A DNA stretch of 64,000 nucleotides from Paraspadella gotoi (Eukaryota; Animalia; Chaetognatha). How positions within the stretch are numbered: position 1 is the first letter of the stretch; every line of letters begins with the position of its first letter. Below, one piece after another: positions 1-64,000 of the stretch. The stretch spans positions 10,006,291 through 10,070,290 of the forward strand of contig CM119271.1 of the NCBI GenBank assembly GCA_051294375.1, given 5' to 3'. The notes beneath the pieces were generated by a model. That model was not told where the DNA came from and did not search any database. It worked only from the letters and a program-made list of their open reading frames with translations. The position numbers were made by a program, and so were the translations under genes.

Positions 1-538
1 TCGTCATGTTTTTGTGCCACTTGGACATTTGGCGATACATCACCTACAGGTTGAATGCATTTAAAAAGTAATAAAAAGGTTCCGGCTCTTTGAGTCGAGG
101 AGGTCAGAAACACGGTTTGCCAAAATAAAAAGACTAAAAAGCGGCTAAAATTGTCAATTAGAAGAAAAAAGCGGACATAATTCCTGACAAAATTCTCACC
201 AGGAATGCGCGCATCATTTCCTTGTGTCCCTGAGAGTTTTGTTGGATGACGACGCTTTGAAGTTCGTCGATGGAATCTTTGATGGGTTTCAAATCGATGA
301 CGTTGACGGCGCCACTTTCTCTACCGCCGGCGACGTCGCAGTTCCGACGGCGCCATCCACGCACCGGGCGCCCACGCACGACGGATGGGCGTGGCCTGGC
401 GCCGCTCGAGGAAGAAGCTTCATCGTCAACGGGCGAAGAGGAGGCGAACGATGAAGAGGAATAAAGCGCGAAACTGGCGAGGACGGAAAAAACGAGGGGA
501 AGCGTCAAGAAGAGCTGACGCGACGTTGGAGACGTCAT
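1..538 (-). CDS. Uncharacterised protein with hydrophobic N-terminus (signal peptide/anchor); 3' end runs off the window
   Basis: ATG at 538, hydrophobic LFLTLPLVFSVLASFALY, GTGAG donor near 200, TGTAG acceptor near 45 continuing as VMYRQMSKWHKNMT. Confidence 0.55.
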
Positions 539-766
539 GGTTGCTTATGGTGAAGCGAAAAGGCACATTGGTTGAGGAGCATCCATTGCCGAAATCGTCG
601 TCCAAAAGTTTTAAGAATTGCTGAAAGTCATGACGCGACTAAACGTCACGCGTATAAACGCTTCCCCCACTGAAGAATAACAAATCAAGAAACGGATAAT
701 GAATATCGACATCGACTTAATACTCGACACTATAAATTTAAAAAAACAAAAAAAACAAGACGTAAA

Positions 767-1373
767 TCATATCAACGAGTCTCTGTTCTTCATACGGTTC
801 GTCCCCCACAACGCCCTCTTCACGCCGCAAAGTCTCCCGTGATCCGCTTCCTCGCGGAACACGAACCGCGAGAGGCGCCAGGGCATAACTTTTCCGCGGG
901 CCCGTGACGTGATGGCGCAGCAGTCCGAGTATCGAACGGGATTGGTTCGACGGGGCAGAGCGTCCAGAGCCGACTTGGCCTCCTCGCGTAGGAAAGGGGG
1001 CAGGACGTGATGGGCCAGCATGAGGCCCTCGAGGCGGCGACGTTCCGGTGCCGCGCGGGCCGCGATCGCTCGGAACTTGACGTCACGACGCATTTTGCGA
1101 TCTTGGTAGCTTTTTATGAAAAGGGGAAAAAAAGGAGGGGGTGTGTGGGGTGAAGCCGGGATAGAATATCGACGTATATGCAAGTAAATATTCAGTTATT
1201 ATATATATAAAATATTAAATATATTCAATTATTCACCCTCTGATCTGCTGCTTCCCAAGGCAATCGCCATGCGCAACGATTCCCGCTCCCGTCGTTACGA
1301 AGATTTCAGATTTTAAAGTTAAACTGTGACAAACGCGCCGAGTCTGAGTCAGGATCGATTTCAAGATCGACAT
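767..1373 (-). CDS. MRPS14: Mitochondrial ribosomal protein S14 (2 exons)
   Basis: Spliced MSILKSILTQTRR...QQIRG/YQDRKMRRDVKFR; S14 motif CAITSRARGKVMPWRLSRFVFREEADHGRLCGVKRALW. Confidence 0.93.
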
Positions 1374-1658
1374 TTTGTTTTTCAGATTTCCTAACGGCCA
1401 GAAAAAAAAAACGGCGGATATTCAATACTGTGCAAAAAAAAAGAAAAAAGAAGCTGTTGGATTTTTAAAGAGAAGAAGAGAGAAAGAAAACCCTTCCCCC
1501 CCCCTCTTCCCTTCCAATCAGTTTTTCCTACTAAATCCATCGAATGCCTCGCAAGAATCGGATCCCAAAAATACGGGAGACGAAAATCGCGTTTTCTCTT
1601 TGTTTTTTTTATCATTTTCGAATAATTTAGAGACAAAGAGATAATGTATTTTTTTCTC

Positions 1659-2277
<619 letters not shown>

Positions 2278-2560
2278 TGTCAATAGAATTATTTAAATGT
2301 TTTATTTCATAAATTAACCGACTTATAAAAAATAAATAAATAAACCATCATCAAAATAAATTAGGCTTGATTATTATAAAAAAATTATACTAACTACAAA
2401 TTTTTTTTATTAATAAAATATATTCCCTTGGAACAACAGCACGTGAAGTGAAGTGAAGTAGCGCATAATTTAGGCAAAAGTCATTAATCACAAAATTAAA
2501 AACCACGAAACAGATCCAGAGTTCCATTTCGATACGAAGACTAACACCAACACTTCTCCG

Positions 2561-4079
2561 TCACCACAACGACGTCCGAGAAAACCTCCTGCTCCCGCCG
2601 CCCAACGATTGATCGAGCGAGAGGCTGCCGGATCCGGAAATCGCCGCCAACTCGGCCTTGATCCGACTAAGCTCCGTCTTGGGATAGAGGGTGGCGTAAG
2701 GCGCTTGAAGGCGGTAGGAAGACGACGTCGTCGTCGGCATCCATATGAAGGCGCTGGCGATGCTGCCGTCGAGAGGATCTGTTTTTTAATGGAGGAAGAG
2801 ATGACGTAATCATTAATCAAGATTTATGAAAAAATATTTTTCTTTTTTTTTTTCTTTTTTTTTAACCGGCGGGTCGAGGGACGGCGTTGACGATGGGAGC
2901 TCTCTCGGTTTTGGTCCAATCCCTGACGGGTGAGTCGTCGTCGTCGTCGTTATTGTTTTCTGATTCGAACTTATTTTCGTTTTCTTGTCTGGCGTCGTCG
3001 CCCTTCTCACGGATCCTTTCCATCTGGTCCACGCTGCTGTGAAAAGTCACTGATTTTTTCGGTGATTCCCAAGACGCTTTCCCCGATTGATCATCGAGGG
3101 GGGAACTAGAGCGTCGATCCCCGCTTAAGGAATCTTTTGTAATATTTGTTTCCCGTTCGACACAACTCGAACCCGCCCTTTCGATCATCCCGACTTCGTT
3201 CTGCGTCCCCGCGAACGCGAGCAGCTGCTGCTGTCGCTGATACATCGCCTCGTCGATACTGCTCGCTGCGTTGCCAGCGTTCTGTCTACCGACGAAAGGC
3301 TGTACCTGCTGCTGCCGTTGATACATCGCTTCATCGATGCCGCCCGGAGCGGCAAGCTCGAACGCTGCATCTACGGCGTCTAGACTACCGACGAAAGGCT
3401 GCAGCTGCTGCTGTCGCTGAAGCATCGCCTCGTCGATCGGCGATCGCTTTTTGTCCGGCGAACGAGGCGGTTCGTAAGGGAAAAACTTGACAACCCCGCG
3501 CTGGCCAGGGTTTTCGTCGAAAAAGCCGGAGACGATGTAGAACTGATTGTATTGAGGGATCGATTCGGTCAGACCGTAATGTTTCCTCAAAAACGGAATC
3601 AACTTGGTCGAGGGCCGATCGTAAGCGATGTGACGTGGCTTGAGATCCATTACACTGCAGCCTTCCAGCATGCGATCGAAGAGCCGCTTCCCGCGTCCCT
3701 GCCGCTGTCGCGACTCGTGCACGTAAAAGTCGAGCACGCAGAGCGGGCGCGTCTTGACGAGCTCCTCCCGCTCGTTGTGGAGGAAGAGATCCTTGGTGCC
3801 GACCTTGAGAAAGCCCAGCGCCGCGCCGCGACCGCCGTTGGCCGACGCGTCCTTGAGCACGAAGAGTTGAGCGTCGTCGCTGAGCAGAAATTTGTAGAGC
3901 ATCGTGACAGGGTGCGGCAGAGACTGCGCCACGGCGGAACCCTTGCCGAGGTGGTCGATGACCCGCTTGAACTTTTCCTTGATCACGCGATCGTTTTTCA
4001 GGCGGAGGTTCAACGATCGCGACTGAAAGTGGGTGATCTCGTCGGGGAACAAGGAATTAATGTCAAAGTCGAACTCCAT
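2561..4079 (-). CDS. ATAT1: Alpha-tubulin N-acetyltransferase (MEC-17), 2 exons
   Basis: MEFDFDINSLF start, GFLKVGTKDLFL, PLCVLDFYVHESRQRQGRGKRLF, AYDRPSTKLIPFLRKHY; spliced last exon ends SRTSLW*. Confidence 0.95.
3195..3440 (-). repeat. Three copies of coding repeat IDEAM(L/Y)QRQQQ in the ATAT1 tail
   Basis: Seen in the translation and as repeated ctgctgctgtcgctga DNA. Confidence 0.85.
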
Positions 4080-4243
4080 CGTAAGAGAGAAAACGGCGGG
4101 AAAATCCGAGATCGAAAAGTTGACGATCGAAAAATAATTTTCTACGATTAAACCAAAAACTAATGTCTCTGTCTCTATTTCTCCTACGAAGATAAAAAGG
4201 GAGACAAAAAAGTATTTTTTTTTTCGAGAAGAAGAATCGAACA

Positions 4244-5188
4244 TCAAGAAGAGGGAATTCTCTCGATGATCACGGGCGAGTCTTCCCGAGAGGCGGGCGG
4301 TCGAAGAAGCGGCGACTTGTGCCAAGTCTCCAAAGACTTGTTGACGACGATGTCCGCGCTGTCCGATGGGATCTTGTCCAGGAAGGCCAGCATGTCTTCG
4401 ACAAGGTTCATGGTGAGCAGAGGGCGTTTGTGGGTGAGCAGCACGGCAACGGCGACGTGGACGAGGATCATGCAAGATCCGGCGACGACTTTGTCCCAAA
4501 TCTTTTCCAAGGCCACGCTGGGAATGATGCCGGCGAAGCAGCCGCGAAACCACCTCGAGTAGGGCAGCTTGCGAAACAACTCGGCTCTATGGAGGTGATC
4601 GTAAAGTCGGTCGTCGACGTCTTGTTGCCGCAACTGCTTGATCAAGCAGTCGGGCAAAAGGTGGAAGCAGTCGTGGAAGCGATCCTGAAGAGTCTTGAAG
4701 AAGCAGACGGAAGCAAAAAAGGCGTCGATCTCCGCCTCAAAGGTCTCCCCCATGGCGTCGGAGATGAAGCAAAAAGGCTCGAGCTGCTCTTGATCGCGCA
4801 TCCTCATCACCGCATCGTCGTCCCCACGAAGCCCGAGCTTCCCTTCCTCCAAGAGAAACATCTTGAGAAAGAGAAGACTACGCGGAGTCGCGTCGACGAC
4901 AAGATCGAGGATTCGAAGGCACCCGCGGAGTTGCTCGAACTGTTGGCGCCGCATTTCGTCGACGAAGTCGTGGTTCACACGGTGCGGCGGCAGAACCGTC
5001 AGCGCGACCTTCCAGACGAGCGGCCGCAGCATCACGGGTACGGTGAACTTGAGGCAGAAAGCGGTGAGTTTCTTGACGTCGACGACGCCAGAGCTGAGGA
5101 TCGTCTCCAGCGACTTCTTTTCCTCGACGCCGCGAAAACCGACTTTGTCGTAGTATTGATTGCGAAAGTTTCTCTCTTCCGACGACAT
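4244..5188 (-). CDS. TBC1D7: TBC1 domain family member 7 (TSC complex subunit), single exon
   Basis: MSSEERNFRNQYYDKVGFRGVEEKKSLE, RPLVWKVAL, WFRGCFAG, IWDKVVAGSC. Confidence 0.95.
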   Translation of the reverse strand: MSSEERNFRNQYYDKVGFRGVEEKKSLETILSSGVVDVKKLTAFCLKFTVPVMLRPLVWKVALTVLPPHRVNHDFVDEMRRQQFEQLRGCLRILDLVVDATPRSLLFLKMFLLEEGKLGLRGDDDAVMRMRDQEQLEPFCFISDAMGETFEAEIDAFFASVCFFKTLQDRFHDCFHLLPDCLIKQLRQQDVDDRLYDHLHRAELFRKLPYSRWFRGCFAGIIPSVALEKIWDKVVAGSCMILVHVAVAVLLTHKRPLLTMNLVEDMLAFLDKIPSDSADIVVNKSLETWHKSPLLRPPASREDSPVIIERIPSS

Positions 5189-5320
5189 GGTCGATCGAGA
5201 CTGGATCCAAACTTCTCGATCCTTTTTGTTAATGAAAAGAATAATTTGAAAACAGAATTTCAAAATGGCACGAGTAAAAAACAAACGGGGTAAAACAATA
5301 AGTTAAACGATATATAACAT

Positions 5321-6758
5321 TCAAGGTTCGTCCCACAAACAAAGTTCTTTGTGTTTAGTCTGATAAGTGAAGTAGCGGCATTTTTGACAAGTTTTAATGC
5401 CGCATCGGTAATTGAGGAATTTTCCGGCCGAATCTTTTCCTCGACAGTATTTTAAGCCGCAGGGGTACCTGAAATAAAGGATAAGCTTAGAATGCACGGC
5501 ATAACGTAATTGGTTACTAAGTACTTTAATAAGTTAACAACCAGTTCACAACCACTTTAAAGTTTATCATCACATGAATAAGTTAAACGAACGAATATAA
5601 AGGGGCTCAAAGAAGAAAGTGACCGACTACAAAGCAAAAAATATCAACAGTTTCCCCCAAGTCTTTCCCCCACCTTCCCTTTTACTCCTCACCATCCGAC
5701 GCAAATCTCCCACTGGCAGAAGCAGGCGGCGCCCCAGTCCCTGACGTCTCGACACTTGGGCTCCGTGTCGACGTAAGGATTGGCGGCGGCGCGGGTGGCG
5801 TTGAGAAGAGGGATGAGTCGGGCGGCGGCGGCGAGGCGCTCGTAGTCCTTGTTGAGAATTTTGGCCAAGAGGCGGAGGTCCTGATCTCGGACGTAGGTGG
5901 ACCCGTCGGCTTCGGCGCAGAGCCGAGGGATGTGCGGGGAGATGAAGGCGGAACGGGAGACGTCGACGAGAGAGTCCATGAGGAAGGTCTCCAATCCTTT
6001 GTCCTCCTCGGGACGACGGATAGCGCCCGGGTTCTTCTGGCGCAACTTGGACATAGCGTCGGCCGAGATGAAGTCGCTCTTGGAGAGACGGATCACGTGA
6101 CAGAGAACCTGGGAAAATGAAATGAGAATAGAACGTTAATATATATTGTAGCAAGGAAATGTTTTGAAATATTAATTCTGATTTTTTTTTTCCCTAGATT
6201 TTTTCACACTATGGCAATTAATATAAAATAATTTAAGATAATACTCTTTTAAGGAAACACGTCACCAACTAATCTGGACAAACTTTTAATTCCGAGAAAT
6301 TATTCTGCAAAGAAGTCGATAAAATTTAATCTCCGCTTTGATAACGTTCTTACAGCAAATAACGTGAGATTCTCCTACATTGTTTATCGAATAAATAAAA
6401 CATTAAACTAAACGAGGCCGTTTCAGCAAGGATTAAGCCAATTTAGCATAAGCCTCGACCAACTTCTCACCTGATACGCGTCTCCCCGCTGACCTCTCTC
6501 CTCCTCTCCCATAGTTATCATCCTAAAGATTTGAACTTCGGACGCGAAGTCTATGAGTTGCGTGATGAGCGACCCGTCGGGACGGAGAAATTCCAGCGTC
6601 ACCGTGTCCTCGGTGGTGTTGGCACCGATGCCCTCCTGCAGCACGTCGCCGCCGCTGTTGCGGACGTTGACGACGAGTTGGGAGCAGGAGACGCCGAGAG
6701 TTGCCGTTAACAAGAAGAGTAGCAGCGGAGGCGTGGGAGGGGGAAAGGACGGTTTCAT
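5321..6758 (-). CDS. OAF: Out at first protein homolog (3 exons)
   Basis: Signal peptide, QLVVNVRNSGGDVLQE, DFISADAMSKLRQKNPGAIR, spliced C-terminus WYPCGLKYCRGKD...RCGIKTCQKC...CLWDEP*. Confidence 0.93.
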
Positions 6759-7127
6759 CGTTTTAATGCTAAAGTTGTCTATCGCGCAGCGACTGAGTAT
6801 TTCTTGCCAGCGAACGGCGGCGCCAGCGGAAACGAGCATAGATTTGAATAAAGCACTAGGAAAACAAAAAGAGTGAACAACAGCCGAACTAACAAAAGTC
6901 AACGAAGTCGGTCGAGAGAGAATGAGAGAGTGAGAAAACGACTCGACATTTATCGCAATCGAAAAACTCTCGAGATGAAAAATAAAAGCTTATATTATAT
7001 TTTATATAAATTATCGTTTTTACCATAAAAAAAAAAATACGTTGCTTAAAATATTACGCCGAATGTCATTTAACTCTAAATTCGCATTCTCAATCCTACT
7101 AAATTGTAATCTTTAAACAAAAGAGCA

Positions 7128-7916
7128 TCAAACCGCCCCGCGCCCCGACTTTTTCACAGAGTTCATCCTCTTTTCTAAGAGCCTCTTCTCGTTCATCATC
7201 GCCGCTCGCTTCACCCGCCGCGCCGCCTCTTCCGGGGTTTCTTCCTTGGGCGTGGCAGCTTGTTCCGCCTCCCGGATGTAATGGCGAATGCGGTCCAGGC
7301 AGTCCGCCTGATTCAACATCTGATTCCGAGTTCTTTCGCTGGTGATCACAAACTCGTTGGCTTTGTTCACCCGATTTTTTTGCATTTCTACGAAAGTTTT
7401 CTGAGGAGGAGAAAAGGAGGGAGAGATAGAAATAGATGGGGGGAAAAGACAGAGATAAAAATATCTCACCTTTATCCAAACGGGAATCCAGTCCGCCTCG
7501 TCTAAACTAAATCTAACTTCGACTTTAGTGTTGGAGGTGTTGACGCTCTGACCCCCGGGACCCGAACTCCGCATCGACTTGATTTTAAGGGCGTTTATCG
7601 GGATGTAGCCTTTTTGACGTTGGATCGAAGAATATTAAAAACTTAAAATTCGACAAATGACGCGAAGGTTTAAAGACTCACCCGAAAAACTCTCCCGCTT
7701 TTCGCCCGAGTAAGTCTTCGCGTAGAGATGATCAGTGGAGGTTGCGACGTCCGCAGCTCGACTCCCGGGATAAACGTCGTCGATAGAGTAACGACTTTTA
7801 AAAGCTGCGGAAAGTGAGGGCGTCGAGACGAAGAGAGATCGATGATGATGGGGCTGCCTCGTCGAGGAGATCGCCCTGAAAAGTGGGCGAAGAAATCGCG
7901 GCGCCGCGGAGTTCAT
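7128..7916 (-). CDS. MRPL58: Mitochondrial peptidyl-tRNA hydrolase ICT1/mL62 (3 exons)
   Basis: RSSGPGGQSVNTSNTKVEVRF (GGQ motif), ITSERTRNQMLNQADC, basic C-terminus. Confidence 0.93.
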
Positions 7917-8100
7917 GGCGGCGGGCGAGGGGCAGCGGCGGCGGGCTTATTGTTTGGATGTCGAGGGCGCGGGGCCTTTGATGACGCGAAAGCTGGTGGA
8001 TTCGCAGGATCGTGCCTATTTTATTCGGGATTTTAGAGAATGAAAAAAAAAGAGGAGGGGGGGGGAAATCGAAATTGAAGATTTAATTCCCTGCGGAGAA

Positions 8101-8474
8101 TTAGAATTCTAAGCCTAAGGCTGAGGAGGTTCTCGAGTTTACCTTTCCTATCAACTCGGCCTCGATCGCTTTGTTGATGTTCTTCGAAACTTCCTTCTTT
8201 CGTTGAGACTGTAACACGGCCTTGGATTTTTTCGCCTGGAAACGATGGGACGAACAAGATAAAAAAAAAAATTCAAGCTTTGCTTTGTTTCTTTTTGTTA
8301 AAAAAAAAAGAGTGAAATTCAATCTTTTTCGTGTTCCACTTTTTTTATCTTTTTTTTCACCTTAAGGTCGCGAGGTCCTTTTTTCAATCCGAGGTTTTTC
8401 TTGTTGGGATTCTTTTGTTTTTGCTTCGAATTTTCTGGCGCTTTAACCTTCGTTTTTAATTTCCCTTGAGCCAT
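8101..8474 (-). CDS. C19orf53: C19orf53 / Leydig cell tumor 10 kDa protein homolog (UPF0390), 2 exons
   Basis: MAQGKLKTKVKAP...LKKGPR, second exon KKEVSKNINKAIEAEL. Confidence 0.8.
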
Positions 8475-8908
8475 TACAAAGGAATCATTGAATCGGCCCA
8501 AAATAGTTTTCTATAGCCTATTTCAAAAGTATAACATTTATTTCGCGAAATGAGTAAATAATTGTAAATAATTCCATGAGACCGACATTTATTATAGTTA
8601 CTTCGACATGTAACGGTGAAGTCCCCCTCCAACAAAATAAACATAAAAGAGAACCGAAAGATTTTGGTATGAGAGTAAATGAATGGGCGTCCGTATTTGT
8701 CAGAACAGAAACATAAAATTAAAAAAAAAAAAAAACATCGATAAAAAATTTGGATAGATTTAGGTAATTTCTGGGATGCAAGGAAGTAATACAAAAAAAA
8801 AATCATTTAAAATTTTGCGCGATTATTCTTGTTTAGTACCATTTAATTTTTCATTCTTTCCCCCACCAGGGGGGGCGATTCTTGTCATTTTCTCCAACAG
8901 ACCGCGTC

Positions 8909-9861
8909 TCAAACCCCCGTCTTGATAACAAAGTACAAATCTGCGACGGCGACGACGGTGGCGACGACGACGCCGACGAGAGCCTCGGCGGCGAGGTTCG
9001 GCTCCGGCATCGAGTAGCGCGTCGCGAAAAACCCGAAGACGAAGGAGGCGGCGACGGTGAGGACGACGTTGACGACGATGATGAGGCCGCGGGAAGACGA
9101 CTTGACCGCCTTGGCGTATTCCGTCGACAAGTCCGCCGTCGTCGAGACGGTGGTGTTGGAGACGTCGGACACCTTTGGGGTGGGGGGGGGATGGGAAAAC
9201 AAAAACAAAATATCCACGGATTAAAAAACAATCAAAATGTCGGCGGATGAGAAGACAAAAACATTATTAAATAAATTGTAAATATTTTGTTTGTTTTTTT
9301 GTCTTCACTAAATAAAATGGTGAAGGATCATTAATATGATAAAGAAGAAAGAGAATATGGCTACAAAACATTCACAGATGAAAAAAAAAAAATTCACTGA
9401 TGAGAAAAGAAATCGATACAAATTTTAACAAATGTAGAACAAACGTTTTAAACAAAATGTGTTAAAAGTCCGTAACCCACCATTCTCTGATAATCCCTCT
9501 CTCGTTGCTCTCGCTCGAGGCGACGACATCTCGCCTCCAACTCGGGGTTTCTCTCTGGTTTAGGCAGTGGAGGAATGTGCAAAGAAGATCCGCTGAGAAG
9601 TTCGTGGAGGTAGCGACACCGGACTCGTTCGTCGACGCTCTCCGTCGCCCCATTCTCCGAATTCTGGAGTTTTTCGTGGAGCCAACGGATCGTTTTGAAG
9701 GGAATCGTGGCCTCGCCGCTTTTCTCGTTTTGTTTCGAATACTTTTTCAATTCTGTCCTCTGCGTGGCGCTCAACGCGTCGCCCATCGCCAGTCCCATGC
9801 GCACGTGATCGGCGATAACGGGCGTCAAACGTACTTCCGGTTCCGTCAAGCGGAACCCCAT
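8909..9861 (-). CDS. TMEM199: V-ATPase assembly factor Vma12/TMEM199 (2 exons)
   Basis: YLHELLSGS, PERNPELEARCRRLEREQRERDYQRMV, two TM helices, VAVADLYFVIK. Confidence 0.9.
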
Positions 9862-9946
9862 GGTTAAAAAAATATTTTCAGAACCGGGGACTGGTTAAAT
9901 AACTGGAAACTAACATCGATTTACAATAAAAAAAAACACAAATGAA

Positions 9947-11731
9947 TCACAATGACTTTGCGGCCTCGGCTCTGACGATGTTGATGAGATCGACATTTAT
10001 AAGGAAGATGAATCTGAGTCCCGCGATTTCGACGACGGCGTTGTTGGAGAGTTTGTACTTGGCGCCGATGGCCACGGGTTTCCCGTCAACGTAGATGGCG
10101 CGCTGGCCTTCGTTGGACACGAAAAAGTCCCCGTTGTTCTTGAGTTTTATGATCCCCTGACGGCGAGAGACTTTCCAAGCGGGACCCTCGAGGGAGAGAT
10201 CCACGTCGATCTGGTTGTCTTTAGTAGCGCGACCTGGAAATCGGTTTGTTCATTTGTTTAAAATTTTTTGTTCCGTATTCGTTAATTTTTAATTCCTTTA
10301 TGGAATCTTAATTCTATATCGGTCCGCCTCGCCACGAAATGCCCCTTTTTTTCGCGATCTATCGACTACCGCGAACAAAAGGGCATTTCGTGGCGAGGCG
10401 GACTGATATGAGAATTTAAACGATGCAGGATGTCAATGAAATTGAATCAATAATAAAATAACCAAAATATTTTTTTTTCACTCACCAATGGTAATCTCTC
10501 TCGATCTCATGAGATAGCGCACGAGTCGACCTCTCAGCACCGCCAGGGTTTGACTATCGAATTCAGGCGGGGAAACGCCCGTAACGGCGTCCACCAACAC
10601 TTGCCATCTCGGCAACTCCGCCTCTAAGCGACGAATCTCCTTTTTTTGTCTACGATCGGAGACGGAAAACTCGTGCTGCAACGCCTCGTCCGGTGGATCC
10701 TTAAACCATCAACAAAAGATCGATGCACGATCCTCTTTTTCATGATTAAATGAACAAAGAGTTTACTTGAAGTTCGGCGTCGTCTATGGCGTCTTCGGCG
10801 TCGGAAAAGTTGAGGACGTGATCTCCTTTGGGCAAAGGTTGGACGGTTTGATCGGGGAGAAGGTGGTACATTTTCATGCCGATCCAGTGGTTCTGAGACA
10901 GAATTATCAGTTTTTAATTTAACAAGAATATCATTAAAACGATTATAAGTACTATAAAATTACTTGCAAAGACTTGGCCGTCCGTCCCCGATGAAAGACG
11001 TCCGGATGTCGATCGAGAATCTCCTGAAAAATCTCCAAAGTGGGCGACGCCGTCGACGCCATCTTCCCCAGCAACGCTTCCTCCGCCTCGCTGAAGAGAG
11101 CCTTCCTGTGAATCTCGGCCACCGTGTCCGGGTGGAGCTTCTTCATGGCGGCGACGGCCAATTGCGAGATGACGGGATCGTAGAGCAGGGAGTGCCATCT
11201 CTCCTGAATCTCTTTGAGGCCGAATTTGCAAGAGAACTTGACGCCGGTGTGGACCATCTGGAGGTCGCGGGTCTGCTCGACGCCGGAGACGAGGAGCATG
11301 TCGTCCTGCGGCTTCCACCTGCCCAGATCCTTGACGGCGGCGGCGGAGGAGACGAAGAGTTTCTTCTTTGTGCTTTTCTTGGAGGAGGATTTTTTGGTGG
11401 CGGAAGAGGATTTGACGAGACGCTTCTCTTCCGAGGGGCGGGTGGGGGTAGAGGTGGAGAAGGTGGAAGGGTTGCCTGGGGGTATTAGGAAGAGCTTAAT
11501 TGATTGATGATTGATGATATAAATTAACGCGTCATTGGAATATGAAACAATGTTTTATTTAACAAATTATAAATAGAGATAAAATATCAGCTCCAGAGAT
11601 CCTTCAAGCGTCTAGCATCCCCACTTTAACTCACCATGTCTCGAAGATGTGGAAGGGCCGTTCGAGCTTGCGGCGGGCGAATTCAAGCTGTCGACGGACG
11701 CTGAAGATTTTTCCGATTGCATTTTCATCAT
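9947..11731 (-). CDS. MCRS1: Microspherule protein 1 (FHA domain; INO80/NSL subunit), 5 exons
   Basis: VHTGVKFSCKFGLKEIQERWHSLLYDP, LAVLRGRLVRYLMRSREITIG, DLSLEGPAWKVSRRQGIIKL. Confidence 0.95.
10316..10409. repeat. Near-perfect ~40 bp-arm inverted repeat in an MCRS1 intron (mini-MITE or hairpin RNA)
   Basis: atatcggtccgcctcgccacgaaatgccc...gggcatttcgtggcgaggcggactgatat. Confidence 0.9.
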
Positions 11732-11884
11732 GAAGAGAAACAGTCATTCAAGGTTTCGCCCAAAATATATAAGCACTACTATAAAAGAATAACATTTAAG
11801 AACAAAAAAAAAATACTAACGATATAACGATAAAAAATATGTAATATGAAGCGTATTTGTAACAAATATATCACAAGCGATCGT

Positions 11885-14800
11885 TTAATCATCACAGATA
11901 GTTGAGACTTCATTCGAGGCTCCGATGCTCGTTTTCCGGCGAGATTCGTCCCTCTGCGTCGACGTGATCATTCGAGCGACGCCGGCGCCGGATTCCGTCT
12001 CGATCCTCGGCCGTTTGGCCATCTTCTTGGCAGTCTTCTTCCCCTTTCTCTTCACATTTTCCTCGTTTTCTTTTCCCTCTTCTTTCTCCTCGAGCGTCAT
12101 GGCCTCTTGCACCTTGTCGGCTGTGATGCGAAAGTCTCGGGCCACGTTCTTCGTGCTCACGGACAAGTCGAGTTTGGTCTTTTTGGCCAGTTGGAGGACG
12201 ATCCCGTCGAACTGTTCCATGGCGAAGATGAGCTGCGGAATCTGCAGGGAATCCCTGTTGGCAGTTTTCAGCTGCAGCAACTTCTCCGACCTTTTCTTCG
12301 CTTCGGTCGTTCCCGCCGTTTCCAAGTAGAAGATGAAAGGGTGGACGTTATGCGACAATTTCTTCGTCAATTTTTCCAAAAATCTCCGGAATTTCTCGTC
12401 GACGGAACGAGCGACGTCGGTGCCGACTTTGCCCTGGCACCCGAGCAAATAGACTTTGGAAACCGTGGCGGCGGTGACGTAAAATTTGATGATTTGCTTG
12501 AGTAGATCCTTTAAAATGGAAGACCCGAACGGCATCTTGGAAAAACACAACTCGCCCAAGATCTTTTGGACGAGATTCAATCTATCGCACGATCGTTCCC
12601 GCCACTTTTTCATCTTTTCTTCCAACGCTTCGTCGGGTCCTTCTTCGTCCCGATTCGTCTCCTTCGCCTCGATCGACGCCGCCCTCAATTTCGCCGCCAC
12701 GAAACTCACGTCGTCCAAAACCTTGCCGACTTGGTCCAAAACGATGGCGACGACGGAGGCCGCGGTTCTGATGGAAATCGATTGGAAATTGAGTTCCTTT
12801 TCGTCGTTGTCGTCGTCCATCGTCTCCTCCTCTAGTTCGCCGAAATGACTCCTCGCGTCGACGGCGACGAGCATCATCTTTTCGTCCAAATCAGTTTTGC
12901 TGTTGAAGATGATGGAGAAGAGAATCTTGACGACGTTCGGGTCGTCCATTTGTTCGCCCTGAGCGAACTCCATCAGCCAATCGAATATTTTCTCGTAAGA
13001 TTCCTCCCCGGGTTTCACGGTTGAATGAAAAAGCCCCAACAAGTTGAGCAGCATCGCCAACTCGCTCCATTTTTCTCTCCTTTCCTTTTTTCTCAAAACT
13101 CGAGCGACTTCGCGCCGAACGGTTTTGGAGAGATCGAAGAGCGCGGATCGAGAGTCGAAGCTGGCCAGGTCGTCGTCCTTTCTCATCGCCTCCGCGTGGA
13201 GAACCTGCACCAACTCTTCCCAATGCGACGCGGAAAACCGATCCTTGACTAAATTCAGAACGGCGGAAATTATATCCAGCATCAACAGCTTCAAGGGTTG
13301 TCCGCCTTTCTTTACGCTCTTGGTTTCGTTGGCTTCGTTTTGCTGAGCCGTGGCGTCGGACACCGAGATTGGATTGAAGAAATGACCCCAGGCCGCCAAG
13401 CAAACGTCGCAAAGACAGTGGAACAATTGCGCTACGGTCAGGTTGAAAGCTCCTTCGCAGAATCCCTTCTCCGAAAGTTGAGCTATTTTTTGCAAGGAAA
13501 CCTGAAAAAGATGCCGGACGAGAGAATGATTGGATCGCAGGAGGTTGGAGATGGCGACGTCGTCCGAACTGTCGTCGAGACAAACTTTTTTCAAAAGTTG
13601 AGAAAGGCAGTCGAGGCTGAGGGAACTGGATATCTTTTGCGGCGCGGAGGCAAGAGGAGCGTTGGCGCTAGAACTGGGCGTGGCGCCATCGTCGTCTTTC
13701 TCCTTCTTTCCAGACTTGAAACCGTCTTTCAAAAATTCTTGAATCGACACGTAAAACCTCAAAATGCCTTCGATGAGTTTAACGTCTTGAGAAGTCGTGT
13801 TCAAAGTTTTAAATTCTAACAATGATTCCAATGCTCCTAACAAAATATTGAGCTTCAACACGTTTTTCAATCCGTTGGTCGTCAGAGAAATTTCCGTAGT
13901 TTTGTCCATTTCGAAATCATCCAAATCGCACTTTGCCAACCTCTTGCAAAGTAAGTTCAAAAGCTCTTGAACGTCGACCATGGAGGATTGACTCTCACAG
14001 TCAGTTTCTTCGTTCGACGCGACCTTGATGGCACCGGTGCAACAACGAATCAAATTTCCCAACGGTTCTATAACGACCACAGAAGAATTCGACATGATTT
14101 GAACGCATTTGTGCAAGAGCAGAGGGGGCCCTCCGAAATCGTCGTCGAGCGCGCTGCGATCCAGGTAAATGACCAACTGGTTGAGCAACAACTCGAACAC
14201 GACCTCCTTCAACTCGCTGTTCCTCTTGACGATAACGGGCAGGCATTCCAGAACCAAAGCCTTCACGTCCGCCTGATGACCGAAGGTTCTCTTCAACGAC
14301 TGCATGAGCTCCACGCAAAGCGCCTTGTTCCCGTCGGACTCGGTCGGCCCAGCGAATCTCGTCTCCACGTCGGCCACTTGGGAAAACTGGTAGGTTTGAG
14401 AGAGTTGGGAACTGGAAAGATCGGAAGACCCCGCGCAGCGGAAATTCCTCAAGAGAAGCAAATAACCGTGAACGGCGGCTTTTCTCGCCTCTGACTTTCG
14501 GTTGAAGAGACACTTGCGCAGAACTAACAAAAGATAATCGCGAGCGACGTGGGACAATTTAAAAACGGGCATTAGGGCGGACAAGACGTTCTTTGAAAGC
14601 GCCGGAGCGAAACTGGGCAGCTGATCGACGCACTCTTGGACTCTTATTCGATTGGAGGATTCGATGAGGGAAAAGGGCGATGCGTTGGCGACGCGGGCGA
14701 GAGCTTCGCTGTAGACAAAGGCGGCGCCGGGGACGTGGGCGTAGAGAGCCACGCGGGTAAGGAGTTGATCCACGATCTCGGCCCGCGCCTCCTCGTGGCG

Positions 14801-16201: not shown

Positions 16202-16320
16202 GTCCTCGACTAAAAATAAATCCCGTATAAGTTAACGAAGAAAATAAAGACTAGATTCATCAACAGCGTCATCTTCTGAGTAAATTTCAAAAGCCAAAAA
16301 TATCAACTATTGTCTGTTAA

Positions 16321-19300: not shown

Positions 19301-19510
19301 AAATTGATTCAAATGAGATTAAAGAACTCTTTATCATATCTCATTTTAATTTCGGCCCGATCGACACCAGTTGTCTCACTTGGCATAAGGATCCGAGCTG
19401 ACTCGATCGTTGTTGTTGTTGCTTCGATCCTCGACTTCAGGGTCGACGATTCCGCCGGGTTTTCGACCGTGACCCAGTCCGAGATCTCCGCTCTCAACAT
19501 CCCCGTCCAT
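16321..19510 (-). CDS. Uncharacterised multi-exon coiled-coil protein
   Basis: Chain of GC-rich exons with GT-AG boundaries starting MDGDVESGDLG; heptad-rich segments such as LRTENASLKAELDRRDELLKAKQK; family not recognised. Confidence 0.65.
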
Positions 19511-50951: not shown

Positions 50952-51173
50952 GTTAGAGTATCAGGTGGTTTTCCACTGTTCGATGTGTCACCGCATTTCA
51001 AGTTTAAGCCGATACCATGGGTCCGATATCGACTTCATGGTGTTCGAAGTTGGGGATCGGGTTTTGAGTAATATATTCAAGATTATCAAAGTTTCTCAAC
51101 AAACTCAAAAAAGAGAACTAGTTTGCTGGAAAAGAAGCGAAAAAAAAAATCAAAACTTAACTCTCATCTCAAC

Positions 51174-53808
51174 TTAACAACAACAAAAACAAGAGGCGGA
51201 ACAAGTTCGTCGTTCAGTTCGTCTTTTTTGAAAACTTTTTTCCTTTCGCTTTCCCTTTTGGACTTTTATGCGGTCCATTTTTATGAGCGGCCTTCCCTTT
51301 TCCCTTTCCCTTTCCCGCCGTCTTGACCCTTTTCGACTGTCCCGATTCGATAACCGCCGTTCGCTTCCGCTTTTGTCTCCCGCCCGTCGAGGCGTCTCCC
51401 GTTTCGACGCCTTCGCCGCTGCCGATCCCGGAGTCATCGCCGCCGCCGCCGAAGGGGGCGTTTAGAACCGCCAATGTCTCTTCGTTTGAGTTTTTTTCTG
51501 TGAAACGTAAATTGAAAAAAATATTAAGAGATATGGCCTTGACTAAGATTCTTAACGGCTTTGTACTTACAAGCAATCGACAAATATAACAATAAAAACT
51601 GTAAATAAAGCTTTCTACCCTCACTAAATAAGTTATGGGAAAGGTTGCGGGATCGGATCTCGGTCGTTGCGCTTTTCATTTTATTGGATGAAATTCCTTG
51701 GTAGTACAAATTGGTGACTCACTAAAGTGATCGACCTGGAACCGGAAGAAACCGGGATCGAATGCCGCACATTTCTACTTACTCTCTTCTTCCCCGGGAA
51801 TCTTGTTGCTGAACTTTTTCAGCTTGGCGACGAAGAAGCCATCCATGTTGTGGGCGTGAGGATAAAACCTTTTGCAGAGATTTGTCGAGGGATGGAAACG
51901 ATCTTGACGGAAGTTAATGAAGCCGGAGGCGCCAAAGTCCAAACCTATGAAAGGATATCACAAGCTATGATATAATAAAAAATATTATATTATCAAAATA
52001 TGACATTAATTTTCACCAGTGGGCACTAGTTTGACGTTCCGCTTCTTGAGGGCGTAGTTGACGACGGCTTCGTTCTCGTCGATCATGATAGAGCAGGTGG
52101 AGTAGACGATGTAGCCACCGGTGGAGCTGTTGGCGTCCACGGAGTCGATCGCCGCGAGGATCAACTCCTTCTGCAGCGTCGTGCATCGATGAAAATCGTT
52201 GGCGTCCTGAACGAAAGAATATATATTTTCAAGTCAAGTCTTGTCGAGTTTAACAATTTCGCGCAAATAAAAATATAAAATACCTTGCTGATTTTGACGG
52301 AGTTGTCTTTGGAAATGACTCCGGTGCCGGAGCAGGGCGCGTCGAGAAGGCAACGATCGAAACCCCTTTGAACGTCCGGAATGCGTCGTCCGTCGTGGGC
52401 GCTGACGACGGCGTTCGAGACACCGAGTCGATGAAGGTTTCCGACGATTGCTCGGCATCTGAAACAATAGTTTGAATCTTATTAAAAACAAAAACAAACA
52501 AACATAAGAAAGACTGATCGAAATCAAAAACCTTTCTTTGTTGGAGTCGTTGGCCAGAATCATTCCGGTATTCTTCATCAGCGCGGCGATGTACGAAGTT
52601 TTAGCACCCGGCGCCGCGCACATGTCCAGCACCCTCTCGCCTTCTTGCGGCGCCAGCGCCATTACCGGGCAGAACGAGGAGGCTCCTTGAAGGATGTAGT
52701 GACCGGCCAGGTATTCTGGCGTCGCCCCTAGAGGAACTTGGGATTCGAAAACGACGAGCCCCACCTTGGTCCACTTGCCCAAAGGCTCCAGATTGACCCC
52801 TCGCCCAATGAGCGCCTGCGCAACATCTCGTCGTCGCGTCTTGAGTGTGTTGGCGCGGAGGGTGACGGGTCGCGGAACCTCGTTGGCCTCCAAAAACTCG
52901 AGCAGCTCATTGATCGGAAAGAGTGACATGAGTCGCGCCATGAGAAACTCGTTGTATGAATAATACGAGCAAAGATCCCGGCGGAGCTGCGCCGTATAAT
53001 CCTGTCGATCGCGACCCGCGACGGCTCGTTCCTTGAAGTTGGCGAGGACGGCGACGACCTCCTTGATGCGCTGATCGAGAATCTCCAAGTCGGGCGCCAA
53101 CGTCTTTTCCCGTTCCACATTCTCGCTATCGGGTAAGAGAAACTTCTCACCCTGAGAGATGTTCGTCTTTAACTCTTCCTCCGCCATCGCTTCATCCTTC
53201 TTCTGTCGCTTCTCTAGTTTCTCGGAGGCCTTTTCGATGGGCAACTTCTCGTCAGCGTCGTCTTCGTCCGACTTTTCCTCATCTTCGTCGTCGCTATCGT
53301 CCTCATCGTCGTGGTCATCACCATCATCGTCTTCCCCACCAAAATCGTCCGGCATATCGTCGCTATCGTCGTCATCTTCCAGTAGGTCTTTCTTCCTTTT
53401 CTTTGGTTTCAACCACTCCTGATTATCGTCGCCAAAGCCCGCGTCGCTTGCGTCGTCGTCCGACAGATCCTGATCCATCGCTTCGTCGGACGAGTCCGTC
53501 CCTCCCTCATCCTCATCCTCGCTTTCGGAAGCTGCCGAGTTTCCACTCGGCCCGATCTTCCCCTTTTTCCCGCCATTTGCAACTCGGAGTTTCTTGTCCG
53601 GTCGCGAATTTTCTTCCGATTTCGTCTCCTTTTTCGTGAGTATGTTTTCCAACTTTTGGATTCGCTTAGTTTTTCGTTGTTTCTGTTTGTGACTCAGTTT
53701 GGTCGGTTCCTTTTCGGCGTCATCGTCCACGAAGACGGGATCGAGCTGCTTGGATTTTTTACCAGTTACTTTCTTCGCGGGTTTGTCTTTAGTAACTTTT
53801 CGACCCAT
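51174..53808 (-). CDS. NOP2: 25S/28S rRNA m5C methyltransferase NOP2/NSUN1
   Basis: MGRK start, [62 protein letters not shown]. Confidence 0.96.
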
Positions 53809-54133
53809 CGTTTAAAAATATATAGTATATAGCTAATCTTTAAATAATGTAGTTTCCAATTTTTTTTAACCGGAACTATCACACAGAAACATAGGGACGA
53901 AAACAGAACTCTTTATTAAAGTAGAGATAAAATTTAAAACAAAGAAAAACCACAGCCACTCCAACGAACAAATCCACAATAAGGAGCGAAAATAACCATT
54001 GACTAGTTGCTCATTATGTTTCAGTCTACGCTGCGCACACGAATGTAAAATTTAAATGATGTTCTAAATAATAATAATAATAAATGTGACACGACGTTTA
54101 TATTGGATTAGTTCAACCATTTTTCGATCGTCT

Positions 54134-58260
<4,127 letters not shown>

Positions 58261-58473
58261 GATGAAGCTTTCTCACTCCCTTTTTATATTAATAAATAAA
58301 AACTTAAAAAATATTTGTCCGGCGAGACCTGGCAATAAAAAAAAATGTTTCAACGCTTCGCATCATGATTTTTATTTGAAAACGAACAACGCTTTTTAAT
58401 TTGAAAACATGATTTTTTCATAACACTTGAGATGTAAATATTTCCACTTGACTGAGAAAAAAATAGTTTGTAT

Positions 58474-59302
58474 TCAAACTCTCTTGGCTTTGTAGGCCGC
58501 AATGCCGTCGTTTGCTTCCGCCAATTCCGCTTCCATCGTCTCCCGATCCTTGGGGACGATTTGATCGGCGTTGGGGAACAACTCGAGATACATTTCGTAA
58601 GTCATGCTGCGAGCGGCTAAATTTGGGTTGAGGGATTGGACATGGGAGAGTAGTAAATAATTCATTAATTAATCAAAAATTAACAAATTGCCTTGGCGCT
58701 TTTCACACTTACGAGGAATCTTTTCAAAAAATGCGATGTCCTTTTTCGATTCGCTGCATTTGACTTCGACTTCGGCGACGATTTCCTTGGTCGTCTGTTT
58801 GATGGCGGCATCCGTCGATTCCGCCGTCCTCATCTTGTCCTTAGCGTCTACGGGATACGGAATGGTCAGCGCTTCGTACTTGGCCTGCGAAAAGGTTTCA
58901 GATAGAAGCAGAGTTGTCAACTTTCAAAGAGGCAGTATTTATATCTTAGGTAATTCTTACAAAACTAATTAAACTGAAATCTTACCTGAAAGTCGCTAAC
59001 CATGGACGAATCGGGAAGCATTCGGTTATAATAACTCCAGTCGATCTTCGGAAGGGTGGCGGGATTGGCGGCGATGCGCGTCATAAGAAGCTCGGCGCTA
59101 TTTTTTGCCGCCTAATTGGCAGAAATGCAATAAATTATAAAATAAACGTCGAGAACCAAAAAGGCAAAACATGTCCCCCCCCCAAAAAAAAGAGAGCGAA
59201 CTACAGCGGACTTACCGCGAAGACTTCCCGACTCTTTCCGCCGGGCATTCTATGACTCAATGCCGTCCAATTTATGGCGGAAGCTGCACGTTGGGACGCC
59301 AT
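58474..59302 (-). CDS. ATP5PD: Mitochondrial ATP synthase subunit d (4 exons)
   Basis: MASQRAASAINWTAL, PKIDWSYY, FQAKYEALTIPYPVD, MTYEMYLELFP. Confidence 0.88.
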
Positions 59303-59992
59303 TATTCTGATTAAGTCTGAAACGTTAAGCCAACGTCAATATCAATTTTATATCAATGTCAATTTTATATTGGTTCTACCAATTTTATAAAATAATAACA
59401 AAATATTAATATTTTTTAAAATTATTAGTCCCAATAGTTCGATAGTTCAATAGTTCGACCCGGAAATAAAGTCTTGAATTTGCGGTGTCATCGGAGAAAA
59501 GACGAAACGAGAAGCCATGATGTCCGGTCATCATTTGGGAGCTTCGGTAAACTTGATTCCAGTGATTCGGAGGATGTGACGCAACTCTTAATCCTCGACG
59601 TCAATGAGACGGGGTATAAATGTCGACAGCGTTCATCGCCTCATAAAAACCTCTGTTCCTTCTTTCCTCCCATATCTTTTAATTTAACTTTCTCGCACAA
59701 CTCCCTTACGTCATTTCATTTCCCACTTTCCTTTTTCTCGATCTCCCCATGTCTTCTCTCCTCTCATTTCGTATATCCTCTCTCCTTTTCCTTTCTCTCC
59801 CCTTCTCCACACACTCTCTCACTCTCTCTCTCTAATCGCCTCCTCTTTTTTTCTGAGGAAAAATTCGGTAGGTCTCCGGCAAACCCTGACCCGTCTCTCA
59901 TCTCGCTCTCTCTCTCTCCCCTTGCTTATTAATGTCTGTGAACATCTTAAGATAAGATGTGTAGTTCTCACAAACTTTTATTGATAGCATAG

Positions 59993-60220
59993 GGAATAGT
60001 ATTCCGTTAACAGTAGCATCAAGTAGCCCTAAGACCGCGCGTGCGGCAGGCGAAGTCCCTAGTATAGTATTGTGCCCTAAGACCCCAAGTGCGGCAGGCT
60101 TCTCTTTTTACCGGAGTAGTACTCCGTAAAGTATTTTAACCGCCCTAAGACCGCTCGTGCGGCCGGCAACGTTTTACTTTAAACTGTAGTAAATATTGCC
60201 CTAAGAGCTTATGCTCGGGC
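59993..60220. repeat. Four spaced GCCCTAAGA-hairpin motifs
   Basis: gccctaaga at ~60027, 60075, 60142, 60198, each followed by a short stem-loop and ggc. Confidence 0.8.
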
Positions 60221-61124
60221 ATTTTAAGTTTTTGTTATCATCATCTCTCCCCTGTATATTCTTGCAATAAAAGAAAAACGAAGAAAAAGTCCACAAAGTC
60301 AACACGATGGCCCAACGACGTCTCTCTCTCTGTCTCTCCCGTCCTCGTCCTCCGTCCCTCTCCGTCAAGGACGGCGCCATGTTGCCTCCTCGCCAAACAA
60401 AAGGGCAACTTCTTGTGATATAAAGTTCCTGTGATATATTATATTATGACATGATTACTAAGCTATATTCTCATTTTACAACTCTTTTAAACTTGTTTTT
60501 GCTTATTATTATGTCCTTTTTTGAAATTTTCTTAGAATATCGCATCGACTTCTCATGGGTCCCACGTCGGCCCTTTCGGATGAGCTCGTCCAGATGGAGA
60601 CGATGGTCGTCGAGACGTCATCGTTATGTTTTGCTTTCTTTTTTATTATTATTTATTTTTTCTTAGGTTTCGTGAGTAAAAAAAACTCGCTCAAATCATT
60701 TCAGGGTGACGGGTGATTTTGACTAAGAACTGTAATAATGTTTAACTTTGAACGGTCCATGAATATCACTATATATATATATAACTGCATCGTCGCACTT
60801 GAAAAAACTTCAACAAGTGAATATTATAAACTGAAATAAAGGGTAAACTTTGAAAATATAAATGCTCAAATAAATTATAAAGTGAGTTAAACTGGTAAGA
60901 CTCGGAATTTAAAAATATACAATATCTCGACTAGTTGGGACAAAATCTTTTTCGGAAAAAGTTTATCTCACTGGATTATTTTTATGCTTTGTCATAATTT
61001 AGATCACTGACAATTAGAATTTTTAGATATAAAGATCACCAACTCGAACAATTAAAAAAGTCTCTGCCTTGGAATTCTATACGCTGTAATATAATCTTGA
61101 TGCTAATGTAAAACGTTGAAAGAT

Positions 61125-64000
61125 TTAAAAGCCATTCCGCGCCCGTTCGTCCTTGAGAAAGGCCTGCGGCCCGCCGGCGGGTTGTTGGTCAACCGGATCC
61201 AATTCGCCGCTTGACTTTTTGACAGGATCTCGAATGCTCAGCTTCACTTCGCCATTCCACCCATCGTTGGTCTCCTCCAACGCCTCCAGTGGATCGCCCA
61301 GAGGGTCCAACATCTCGTCGACCTTATTTCTTCGATGTTCCGACAATTTCGCTTCGATACTGAAAAAAATTAATTTAGTGTAAATAATAATACTTCATAT
61401 TGTCAAAACTAGATATCCAATTCGAACCAATTTACCTGTTCCAAATTTGTCTCATCCTTTCTTTTCCTTCTACTTGAGGATTCGTACCAACGACCGATGG
61501 TTGCTTTTCTTTTTCGTTTTTATTGTTGTTGTTGTCGTCGCCGTAATCTTCATCGTCGACGACCTCGAGGTTTTTCGAGTCAGTGAAAGTCGCTTCTTCT
61601 CCGTCGCATTCGGCGAGCCTCTGCGGAGGATTGCTCCCTTGAAGTCTGACGTACATGCGTCTGAATTGATTCGCCCCAACGGAGGCGGTTTTTCTCAGAA
61701 AGTGCAAGCTTTTGCCGCGGGAGGCTGTCGTCTTCGTGGTCGTCGTCGGACCGGAAACCTCGTCTTCGATCAACTCTTCTCCACGTCGGCGTCTCTTAAA
61801 GAGGACGACGACGTTGCTACGCAGCAACTCCGGTCGCACTTTCTTCACATAAATGATGGAAACGACGAAGGCGGCGACGATGGCAACGAGAAAGAAAATT
61901 AAAATGCCGAGCGCGGTATGTGACGATGAGATCTTTGCTCCAGCGGCAGTGGGTGCCTCCTCTGTTTCTGCAAGTTTCTTCTCCTTGGACCCAGGCGGGT
62001 GCTGGAAGACAACAGAGTCGTCCTCGTCGTAAGCCTCGAAGTCGTAATCTTCTGACATCGAAAAAATGTGATAGATGAAGTGATTCTGAATGAAACGGTT
62101 TTCGCTTCCCGGGCAGCCGTATCCTCGACGGTAGCCGTAAGAGAGGACGCAGAGTTGTGTGCAAGGGTTGTCCTCGCAGGGATTGTGATTCGCGGGTTGC
62201 TTGAAGGGGTGGTCTACCTTAACGGCTGTGGGTTCGTGATCCAGCCATGGAAATTGATGAAGCTTCACGCGGTCGCGCGGGTGAAAAAGGTTAAATTGGA
62301 AAACGTAGTAGTAAAAGTCGCTAAGGATGTAAGCGTAATCTTCAAAGATGTCGAGCTGCGATGGCATTTCCACAGGCGCCGTCGTTAACAACTGAGGTTT
62401 CAAATTCTTCGCTTCGGAGAAGATCTTGACGTAGTAAATGCCACCTCGCCAATTGTCGATCCAATAAAGTATCTCCCTCGCGAAATCTAGCGTCACCGAC
62501 GAAGGCCGCGTCACGTCGGAGACGACGAGCCGCCGATCGTAGCCGTCCATGGACGAGGCCTCGATGGCGGCCTTGCCTAGATGATTTTCGCTGTAACGGC
62601 TCCAGAACATGGTGCGATTGGCCGGATGCAGCGCGATCGAAGTAGGTTTGTCCACAAGAGGAACGAGATTGTCGATGCAGGAAAATGTTGTCGATGAGCA
62701 GACCGCGATGCCGCGGTTCTTTGCGTCACCAATGTACAAGTTTTTAGTGACCCAATCCAAGGCGATTGCCGACGGAGAGTAGGAAGTGTTGACTTCCTAA
62801 AAAATAATAAATAAAAAAAAGAAAATGCGATAATTGTTTTCAAAGGGTTCACAAAAAAATTCTAACCCAGTTTTAACTTACCCTTAATTCGTGCATTGAA
62901 GCTTGCGAAAAATTTGAGATAAGAATTCGGCCGTCGGGAAAAGCCCAAAATGTTTCCCGTGAATGTATATCGAAATCAAAAACGTATTCTTTCGTTTGGT
63001 TGAATCTGTAACTCTTAAAAGAATTCTGAAAGTAGCTCTCATGATGCGAGAGAAGCAGCTTTGGTCCTACAGAATTCATTTCATAAATTCGATTCGATTG
63101 GGCGACTAAAAGTTTGCACGCCTTGGTACTATCTGGCTTACACCAAAGCTCATGGTGTGGACTTTTTTCACGATTTTGACCCAAGAATCCGTCAACACCG
63201 CCATGAATAAATGTTGTAGTTTCAAAATATCCTTCAGCACAGCGGCAACTAAAGCTCCCTCTCAAGTTTATGCAAACTTGCAAATGTCGACAAATAAAAG
63301 GTGACGCATGGCATTCATTAATGTCGATGCATTGCCCATCAATTATTTCGAATCCTGGTTTGCAAAAACATCGAGAGCCTCGAGGCGTTGGATGACAAGA
63401 CTGTTGACATCCCCCATATTGTTGCTTACAAGCCACTTCACATAATCCGCCTTCGTCCGAATCATCGAAGCAATCTGGAACAAGGTCACAAACTTTTTTC
63501 ATGTCAATGCATTTACGTCGGTCATCGCAGAGAAATCTCGAGTTGTTGCAGGCCTTGGGGTCAAAACCTGCACAATGTTGTTCATCTTCACCACCAGGAC
63601 AGTTAACCACAGTGTCACAACGTTGCTTTTCACTAAAGCAAGTTTTACCATCGGAGCAAAGCATTTGATCTTTAGGACAACTAAAGCAACTCTTTTCATC
63701 CAAGCCATCTGGGCAATCAACTTGACGATTGCATTGAAATTTTTCAGGGATGCAGTGGTTGGGCCCACATGCAAATTCATTTAAGGCACAACCGGTATGA
63801 TTAAACACTTCAAAATGTGCACAAACGTGTGCTCTTTCATCCTCTCCTTGAGAACAATCGGAATGGCCATCACAGAATTTTATCGATGGTATACAAGAGC
63901 CGTCCTCACATGTCCACTCATGTACATTGCAAAAATCCTTTTTAAAAGATTCGCAATGGCTTTCATCAATTCCAATTGCTGAAGAAGTATGATTAATACA
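61125..64000 (-). CDS. LDL-receptor-family protein (vitellogenin receptor/LRP-like), 3' part only
   Basis: LDLa repeats (CNRQVDCPDGLDE), Ca-EGF (DINECH), YWTD-type propeller (DWVTKNLYIGD, LYWID), TM segment, cytoplasmic tail. Confidence 0.9.

Follow-up and report, generated by a model that had tools for sequence, protein, structure and literature searches.

We analysed a 64,000-nucleotide stretch of the genome of the chaetognath Paraspadella gotoi (contig CM119271.1, positions 10,006,291 to 10,070,290 of the forward strand), called the window below and numbered from its first nucleotide. All twenty-six genes modelled in it lie on the minus strand, and this strand uniformity, together with the tight packing of the genes, is confirmed as a real feature of the locus. 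Three larger gaps leave blocks of at least thirteen, five and seven (or four plus three) genes, which are probably chaetognath operons resolved by spliced leader (SL) trans-splicing, each likely to have its promoter in the preceding gap. The mechanism is a known one; the candidate unit of thirteen or more genes would exceed the reported maxima.

The gene models were built by hand, cover 81 per cent of the window and contain 101 modelled introns. Every stop-to-stop open reading frame (ORF) of at least 60 amino acids on either strand was scanned with Pfam at the curated cut-off. Matches above the cut-off, drawn from 267 minus-strand ORFs, were obtained for twenty-one of the twenty-six genes; ATP5H and a DUF2462 gene matched only below it, and the minus-strand scan gave no convincing family for a coiled-coil gene, gene X or gene Z. 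Human-style gene names are based on Pfam families and background knowledge, and the models are uncertain at the 3' end of a zinc-finger gene and at the boundary between genes X and Y. A preliminary description of this DNA had placed every recognisable gene on the minus strand and had named real plus-strand genes inside the blocks as something that would count against its reading. That placement holds: none of the 232 plus-strand ORFs reached the cut-off, and all seventeen splice joints displayed in RNA contigs are minus-strand. Two weak plus-strand matches (E 0.001-0.002) are both antisense to a repeat exon. The window contains no tRNA and no Rfam match, and a scan of it for a leader-gene motif detected none. 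Models from a home-made gene finder were discarded as non-discriminating, with plus-strand shadow models over minus-strand exons scoring comparably.

The same description put the chance of such uniformity at 1 in 3x10^7. The arithmetic is correct (2x0.5^26 = 3e-8), but independence is the wrong null, since orientations within an operon are tied together. If four to five co-oriented blocks are taken as the units, p = 0.125-0.06.

The largest block and the gap ahead of it are listed here in the order of transcription, 5' to 3'.

20696-23111, no strand: gap of 2416 bp, AT-rich, predicted site of the block 1 promoter
1-20695, minus strand: block 1, a candidate operon of at least thirteen genes that continues past the window end (Pfam, models, spliced contigs)
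19793-20695, minus strand: RAD51 paralogue that we take to be XRCC3-like, single exon, first in block 1 (Rad51, E 1.5e-22)
16321-19552, minus strand: coiled-coil gene of twelve exons, no convincing family (model; six joints in run X1)
11885-16201, minus strand: FANCI, one 4.3 kb exon (five FANCI domains)
11731-9947, minus strand: MCRS1 (Pfam; shares a spliced contig with TMEM199)
9861-8909, minus strand: TMEM199 (Pfam; 85 bp from MCRS1)
8474-7947, minus strand: C19orf53-like DUF2462 gene (Pfam below cut-off; model)
7916-7128, minus strand: ICT1, or MRPL58 (Pfam, model)
6758-5321, minus strand: OAF (Pfam; spliced contig)
5188-4244, minus strand: TBC1D7, single exon (Pfam; spliced contig)
4079-2561, minus strand: ATAT1 (Pfam; spliced contig)
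2277-1659, minus strand: NDUFAB1 (Pfam; shares a spliced contig with MRPS14)
1373-767, minus strand: mitochondrial S14, MRPS14 (Pfam; shares a spliced contig with NDUFAB1)
1-538, minus strand: predicted gene Z, N-terminus hydrophobic, truncated by the window end (model only)

Across the window, stop-to-ATG spacers in transcription order measure 1822 / 213, 325, 262, 896, 136, 273 / 1786 / 337, 369, 328, 312 / 2416 / 240, 119, 153, 85, 434, 30, 369, 132, 164, 283, 285 and 228 bp, where slashes set off the gaps, so that the blocks hold one, seven, five and at least thirteen genes. Twenty-one of the twenty-five spacers are short, at 30-434 bp (median 262; all below 500 bp), and each of them has to accommodate both untranslated regions (UTRs). 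The twenty-five junctions include no divergent gene pair. An 896 bp spacer lies inside the seven-gene block, between the LRP12-like gene and MRPS11. Remeasurement reproduced exactly the six spacers quoted earlier (85, 119, 132, 136, 153 and 164 bp), and the three gaps of 1.8-2.4 kb and the block sizes of 13+, 5 and 7 were likewise as claimed. The shortest spacer, 30 bp between the C19orf53-like gene and ICT1 (7916-7947), is 93 per cent GC. The sole AG close to the start of ICT1 coincides in part with the stop codon of the C19orf53-like gene. Since the mRNA of that gene is bound to overlap ICT1 at its 3' end, the two are likely either to share a stable two-gene mRNA or to be processed in mutually exclusive ways.

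RNA contigs run through six of these spacers. Two runs, X1 and X2, were treated as RNA since their contigs are spliced; X1 holds 61 per cent and X2 9 per cent of the sampled words of 51200-59320. On 1-20000, fifteen of the twenty-six joints were displayed and all fifteen are CT..AC, i.e. minus-strand GT-AG introns, as are both joints in the stretch covering the LRP-like gene and the third gap. Among the pieces displayed (there are 350 more), spliced X1 contigs are unbroken through six of the twelve block 1 spacers: NDUFAB1-MRPS14, OAF-TBC1D7, TBC1D7-ATAT1, ICT1-OAF, MCRS1-TMEM199 and coiled-coil-FANCI. Two of the six, ICT1-OAF and NDUFAB1-MRPS14, measure 369 and 285 bp. By adding modelled exon lengths, record 2 (4777 nt) spans five genes with a predicted end at 8743, and the predicted end of record 3 is 8710. 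Both lie at a repeat where records break; since the two ends meet at 8710-8743, the seven genes from MCRS1 to ATAT1 are probably continuous in the assembly graph. At the other end of the window, the contig of the LRP-like gene ends at 60539, 586 nt beyond the stop codon. No X1 contig was found on 57110-59314, though X1 holds its words, and cover is also absent at 59462-59755; the latter absence is not evidence of a boundary.

A leader sequence was seen on a transcript of a close relative. In block 3, the C-terminus of enolase is joined in frame to the N-terminus of TPI within one exon (54984-55329, minus strand), giving a single fused ORF modelled at 693 amino acids. Eighteen fused relatives match the junction exon at 77-84 per cent identity, and a second, distant group of enolase-TPI fusions, dinoflagellates included, matches at 41-51 per cent. 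The full-length model is 82 per cent identical to its closest relative, P0002. In a TPI tree of twenty-nine rows, the window TPI forms a clade with nine close relatives (support 100/99), apart from the dinoflagellate-type fusions. P0002 is encoded by one contig, L001, found by its junction pattern, and the first 26 nt of this contig equal the 3' 26 nt of the chaetognath leader SL2.0 (26/26; Table 3, PMC2481426). Chaetognath leaders are unlike those of any other phylum (PMC2481426). Thus, for one gene, the window fusion clusters with a leader-bearing relative by both the shared junction and the 100/99 clade; the leader was seen on L001 and not on the window's own transcripts. The sequence by itself thus makes a chaetognath origin very likely, and origins in nematodes, tunicates or flatworms were dismissed on the strength of the match between the relative's leader and that of chaetognaths. 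TBC1D7 also points to relatives other than named animals, its closest matches showing 54-62 per cent identity and named animals about 43 per cent or less over the full length; a profile search of 50% representatives was uninformative about the taxon. The fusion is possibly a marker for chaetognaths. We found no paper on an enolase-TPI fusion in chaetognaths, within incomplete literature coverage, and the operon table of P. gotoi could be relevant here. Within a 1.4 kb enolase intron (55757-56970) there are tandem repeats of 51 bp and a foldback element whose inverted repeats are nested.

Under the operon reading, each block would be an RNA polymerase II unit initiated in the gap ahead, which is assigned a promoter role. 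At each spacer of 30-430 bp, the upstream mRNA would be cleaved and polyadenylated and the downstream mRNA capped by leader trans-splicing. Window mRNAs would then carry the leader, promoters would occur in the gaps only, and a single transcript would cover each whole block. Blocks might grow by a ratchet, in which a gene copy inserted in sense is expressed without a promoter of its own and an antisense copy is not. FANCI, XRCC3 and TBC1D7 each consist of one exon, in surroundings rich in introns, and would fit such capture; their orthologues in other animals are multi-exon. All three are possibly retrocopies. Operons have been suggested to let genes insert without their own promoter (PMC11067885).

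Several results weigh against this reading. A contig over two genes does not prove a single transcript, as overlapping UTRs would look alike, and the bridging RNA data are confined to block 1. Among assembled contigs, we found no leader-like loose end on window transcripts in the 12 of 99 examined on 1-20000 and the six of seven examined in the stretch of ATP5H and the third gap. Assemblers tend to drop short leader branches, and with so few loose ends examined this absence is weak evidence. Stop-to-ATG distances are under 250 bp in just ten of the twenty-one short spacers, so an operon count by the published rule depends on where the UTRs end. A position weight matrix for cis-type acceptors scored the spacers no higher than shuffles (Fisher p 0.34, twenty-two spacers) or the opposite strand (Wilcoxon p 0.20). 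Although T exceeds A on the sense strand in all twenty-one short spacers, introns are likewise T-rich, and with the null result of the matrix this means that acceptors are not readable from sequence. AG sites are present in spacers, strong donors occur in three of the twenty short spacers scored, and k-mer enrichment gave weak U/GU-rich words alone, uncorrected. Most trans-spliced P. gotoi genes lie outside operons (PMC12460157); what L001 demonstrates is trans-splicing, not membership of an operon. For the earlier proposal that an animal rich in introns uses long polycistronic transcripts resolved by SLs, the support is indirect and partial: the chaetognath identity, the relative's leader, published operons and spacer-crossing contigs.

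One alternative holds that the blocks are parts of a single directional cluster, as in the one-way arrays of 100 kb or more of kinetoplastids and dinoflagellates, with read-through of the larger gaps or selection against opposed neighbours. We regard this as unlikely. It accounts for 26 of 26 genes on one strand, and it draws on a second locus, the 158-kb bacterial artificial chromosome (BAC) 35A21 of Spadella cephaloptera, where each of the fourteen named host genes whose orientation is given is '+', across about 120 kb (Table S5, PMC2481426). The twenty-four rows of that table, with columns taken from the PDF layout, comprise nineteen '+', four '-' and one without orientation, and all four '-' rows are labelled transposon (PMC2481426). 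Grouped by us into six clusters, the BAC genes give p = 0.03, and P. gotoi shows little structure of topologically associating domains (PMC12460157). However, the block-level p in the window is just 0.06-0.125, and the BAC pattern is suggestive only, because this BAC was chosen for its same-orientation clusters and its list of SwissProt-matched genes omits unannotated models. The contig of the LRP-like gene also stops shortly past its gene, at 60539. Unlike kinetoplastids, where all mRNAs are trans-spliced and genes are nearly intron-free, the window has 101 modelled introns, and in P. gotoi trans-splicing leaves out about half of the genes, which have more regulatory elements (PMC12460157). 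The kinetoplastid-like clusters raised in the preliminary description are therefore unneeded for this window, given a block-level p of about 0.1, and keep their place as a possibility because the second chaetognath locus is equally strand-uniform. The shared strand of the separate blocks may reflect chance (p about 0.1), internal promoters within a longer unit, or selection against opposed transcription. Only tentatively do we extend this to chaetognath chromosomes organized as one-way arrays of 60-150 kb or more, composed of co-oriented operons of up to thirteen or more genes, an animal version of kinetoplastid and dinoflagellate clusters. Within incomplete literature coverage, we found no paper on strand-uniform arrays in chaetognaths; the words 'strand', 'orientation' and 'enolase' are absent from the main text of PMC12460157, and here too the operon table of P. 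gotoi could be relevant.

In a second alternative, housekeeping genes are densely packed, most are driven by short promoters of their own and some are trans-spliced, so that true operons would have two to five genes and the thirteen-gene block would be several units; the missing leader on window genes and the null acceptor test agree with this, spacers of 369-434 bp could house a small promoter, a strict 250 bp stop-to-ATG rule cuts block 1 into runs of 5, 2, 3, 1 and 2+, and Oikopleura operons commonly have internal promoters (PMC6389100), but we think it improbable, as spacers of 30-164 bp leave almost no space for a 3' UTR, terminator, promoter and 5' UTR, none of the twenty-five junctions is divergent, and RNA contigs traverse spacers as long as 285 and 369 bp.

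Operons resolved by trans-splicing therefore remain our preferred reading, and they can be set beside known systems. Operons reach up to eight genes in C. elegans and eleven in Oikopleura. The largest candidates comprise six genes in Ciona (100 bp rule; PMC2760879) and nine in flatworms (300 bp rule; PMC12582326). In P. gotoi, about half of the genes are trans-spliced and 18 per cent lie in operons by a 250 bp rule, the longest with nine genes (PMC12460157). Chaetognath leaders are 36 nt long, and S. cephaloptera has an RPS14-PCNA operon with 3 nt between poly(A) site and acceptor, as well as a BAC on which further genes of one orientation are tightly clustered (PMC2481426). The window resembles these chaetognath operons in its head-to-tail housekeeping genes (mitochondrial translation, RNA metabolism, DNA repair) with very short spacers (PMC2481426, PMC12460157) and in the SL2.0 leader on the closest relative's contig. 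It differs in the length of block 1, at least thirteen genes versus nine, although a 250 bp rule applied to annotated genes is not directly comparable with stop-to-ATG distances (PMC12460157). Block 1 is also adjoined by further same-strand blocks, a pattern absent from the main text of PMC12460157, and the window includes LRP-family genes and EZH2, whereas operon genes in P. gotoi are depleted for signalling and development (PMC12460157). Unrelated, co-oriented and closely spaced housekeeping genes are shared with operons of Ciona, Oikopleura, nematodes and parasitic flatworms, and a single-exon 5'-most gene, here XRCC3, is common in Ciona (PMC2760879). Unlike nematodes with SL2, chaetognaths have no operon-specific leader (PMC12460157). 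Kinetoplastid clusters and dinoflagellate arrays, too, are long runs in which unrelated genes share one strand, and their mRNAs also receive a spliced leader; the window differs from them in being intron-rich (seventeen of its introns displayed as RNA joints) and in its run of twenty-six genes in 64 kb, broken by probable promoter gaps.

A unit of thirteen or more genes, if true, would top the largest reports we found (nine in chaetognaths, nine in flatworms and six in Ciona), and operon length may then be underestimated when operons are called by distance. Strand uniformity, if true genome-wide, would mean that an intron-rich animal has converged on protist-like directional gene arrays.

The remaining features of the window, in the order of transcription, are as follows.

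61125-64000, minus strand: LDL-receptor-family (LRP-like) gene, 3' part (Pfam; RNA contig)
59303-61124, no strand: gap of 1822 bp, with the LRP-like 3' UTR and a repeated element near 59900-60340
42001-59302, minus strand: block 3, seven genes, or four plus three (Pfam, models)
59302-58474, minus strand: ATP5H (Pfam below cut-off; model)
58260-54134, minus strand: enolase-TPI fusion (Pfam, model)
53808-51214, minus strand: NOP2 (Pfam, model)
50951-46214, minus strand: LRP12-like gene (Pfam, model)
45317-44474, minus strand: MRPS11 (Pfam, model)
44337-43351, minus strand: DCTD (Pfam, model)
43077-42001, minus strand: HSD17B10 (Pfam, model)
40215-42000, no strand: gap of 1786 bp, holding a GC-rich segment (41230-41620)
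23112-40214, minus strand: block 2, five genes (Pfam and models from sequence)
40214 to about 38065, minus strand: C2H2 zinc-finger gene, 3' end approximate (Pfam, model)
37727-34016, minus strand: EZH2 (Pfam, model)
33646-31513, minus strand: FARS2 (Pfam, model)
31184-29235, minus strand: gene X (model)
28922-23112, minus strand: gene Y, with 33-amino-acid repeats and a MYND finger (model; X/Y boundary modelled)

The GC-rich segment at 41230-41620, a region chosen by eye, can form several hairpins (z -2.2 on the minus strand and -2.7 on the plus strand). A relaxed Rfam scan of 41150-41750 gave matches only far below gathering scores, and the segment may be a non-coding RNA, a promoter or a repeat.

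Gene Y has about nine tandem repeats of 33 amino acids and several WF-x-x-x-RY motifs (24831-25835, minus strand), with the MYND finger after them. The repeats matched no family; the WF-x-x-x-RY motifs are reminiscent of the long EF1-delta N-terminus. The spacer between genes X and Y carries a long (GT)n microsatellite (29110-29230), and an acceptor segment is duplicated 5' of the last exon of gene X (29400-29520). Two modelled introns are of the GC-AG type, one in EZH2 (34957-35021, minus strand) and one in gene X (30246-30322, minus strand). Repeated elements with inverted ends, resembling miniature inverted-repeat transposable elements, are present in the third gap (59901-60338) and in an intron of MCRS1 (10316-10409).

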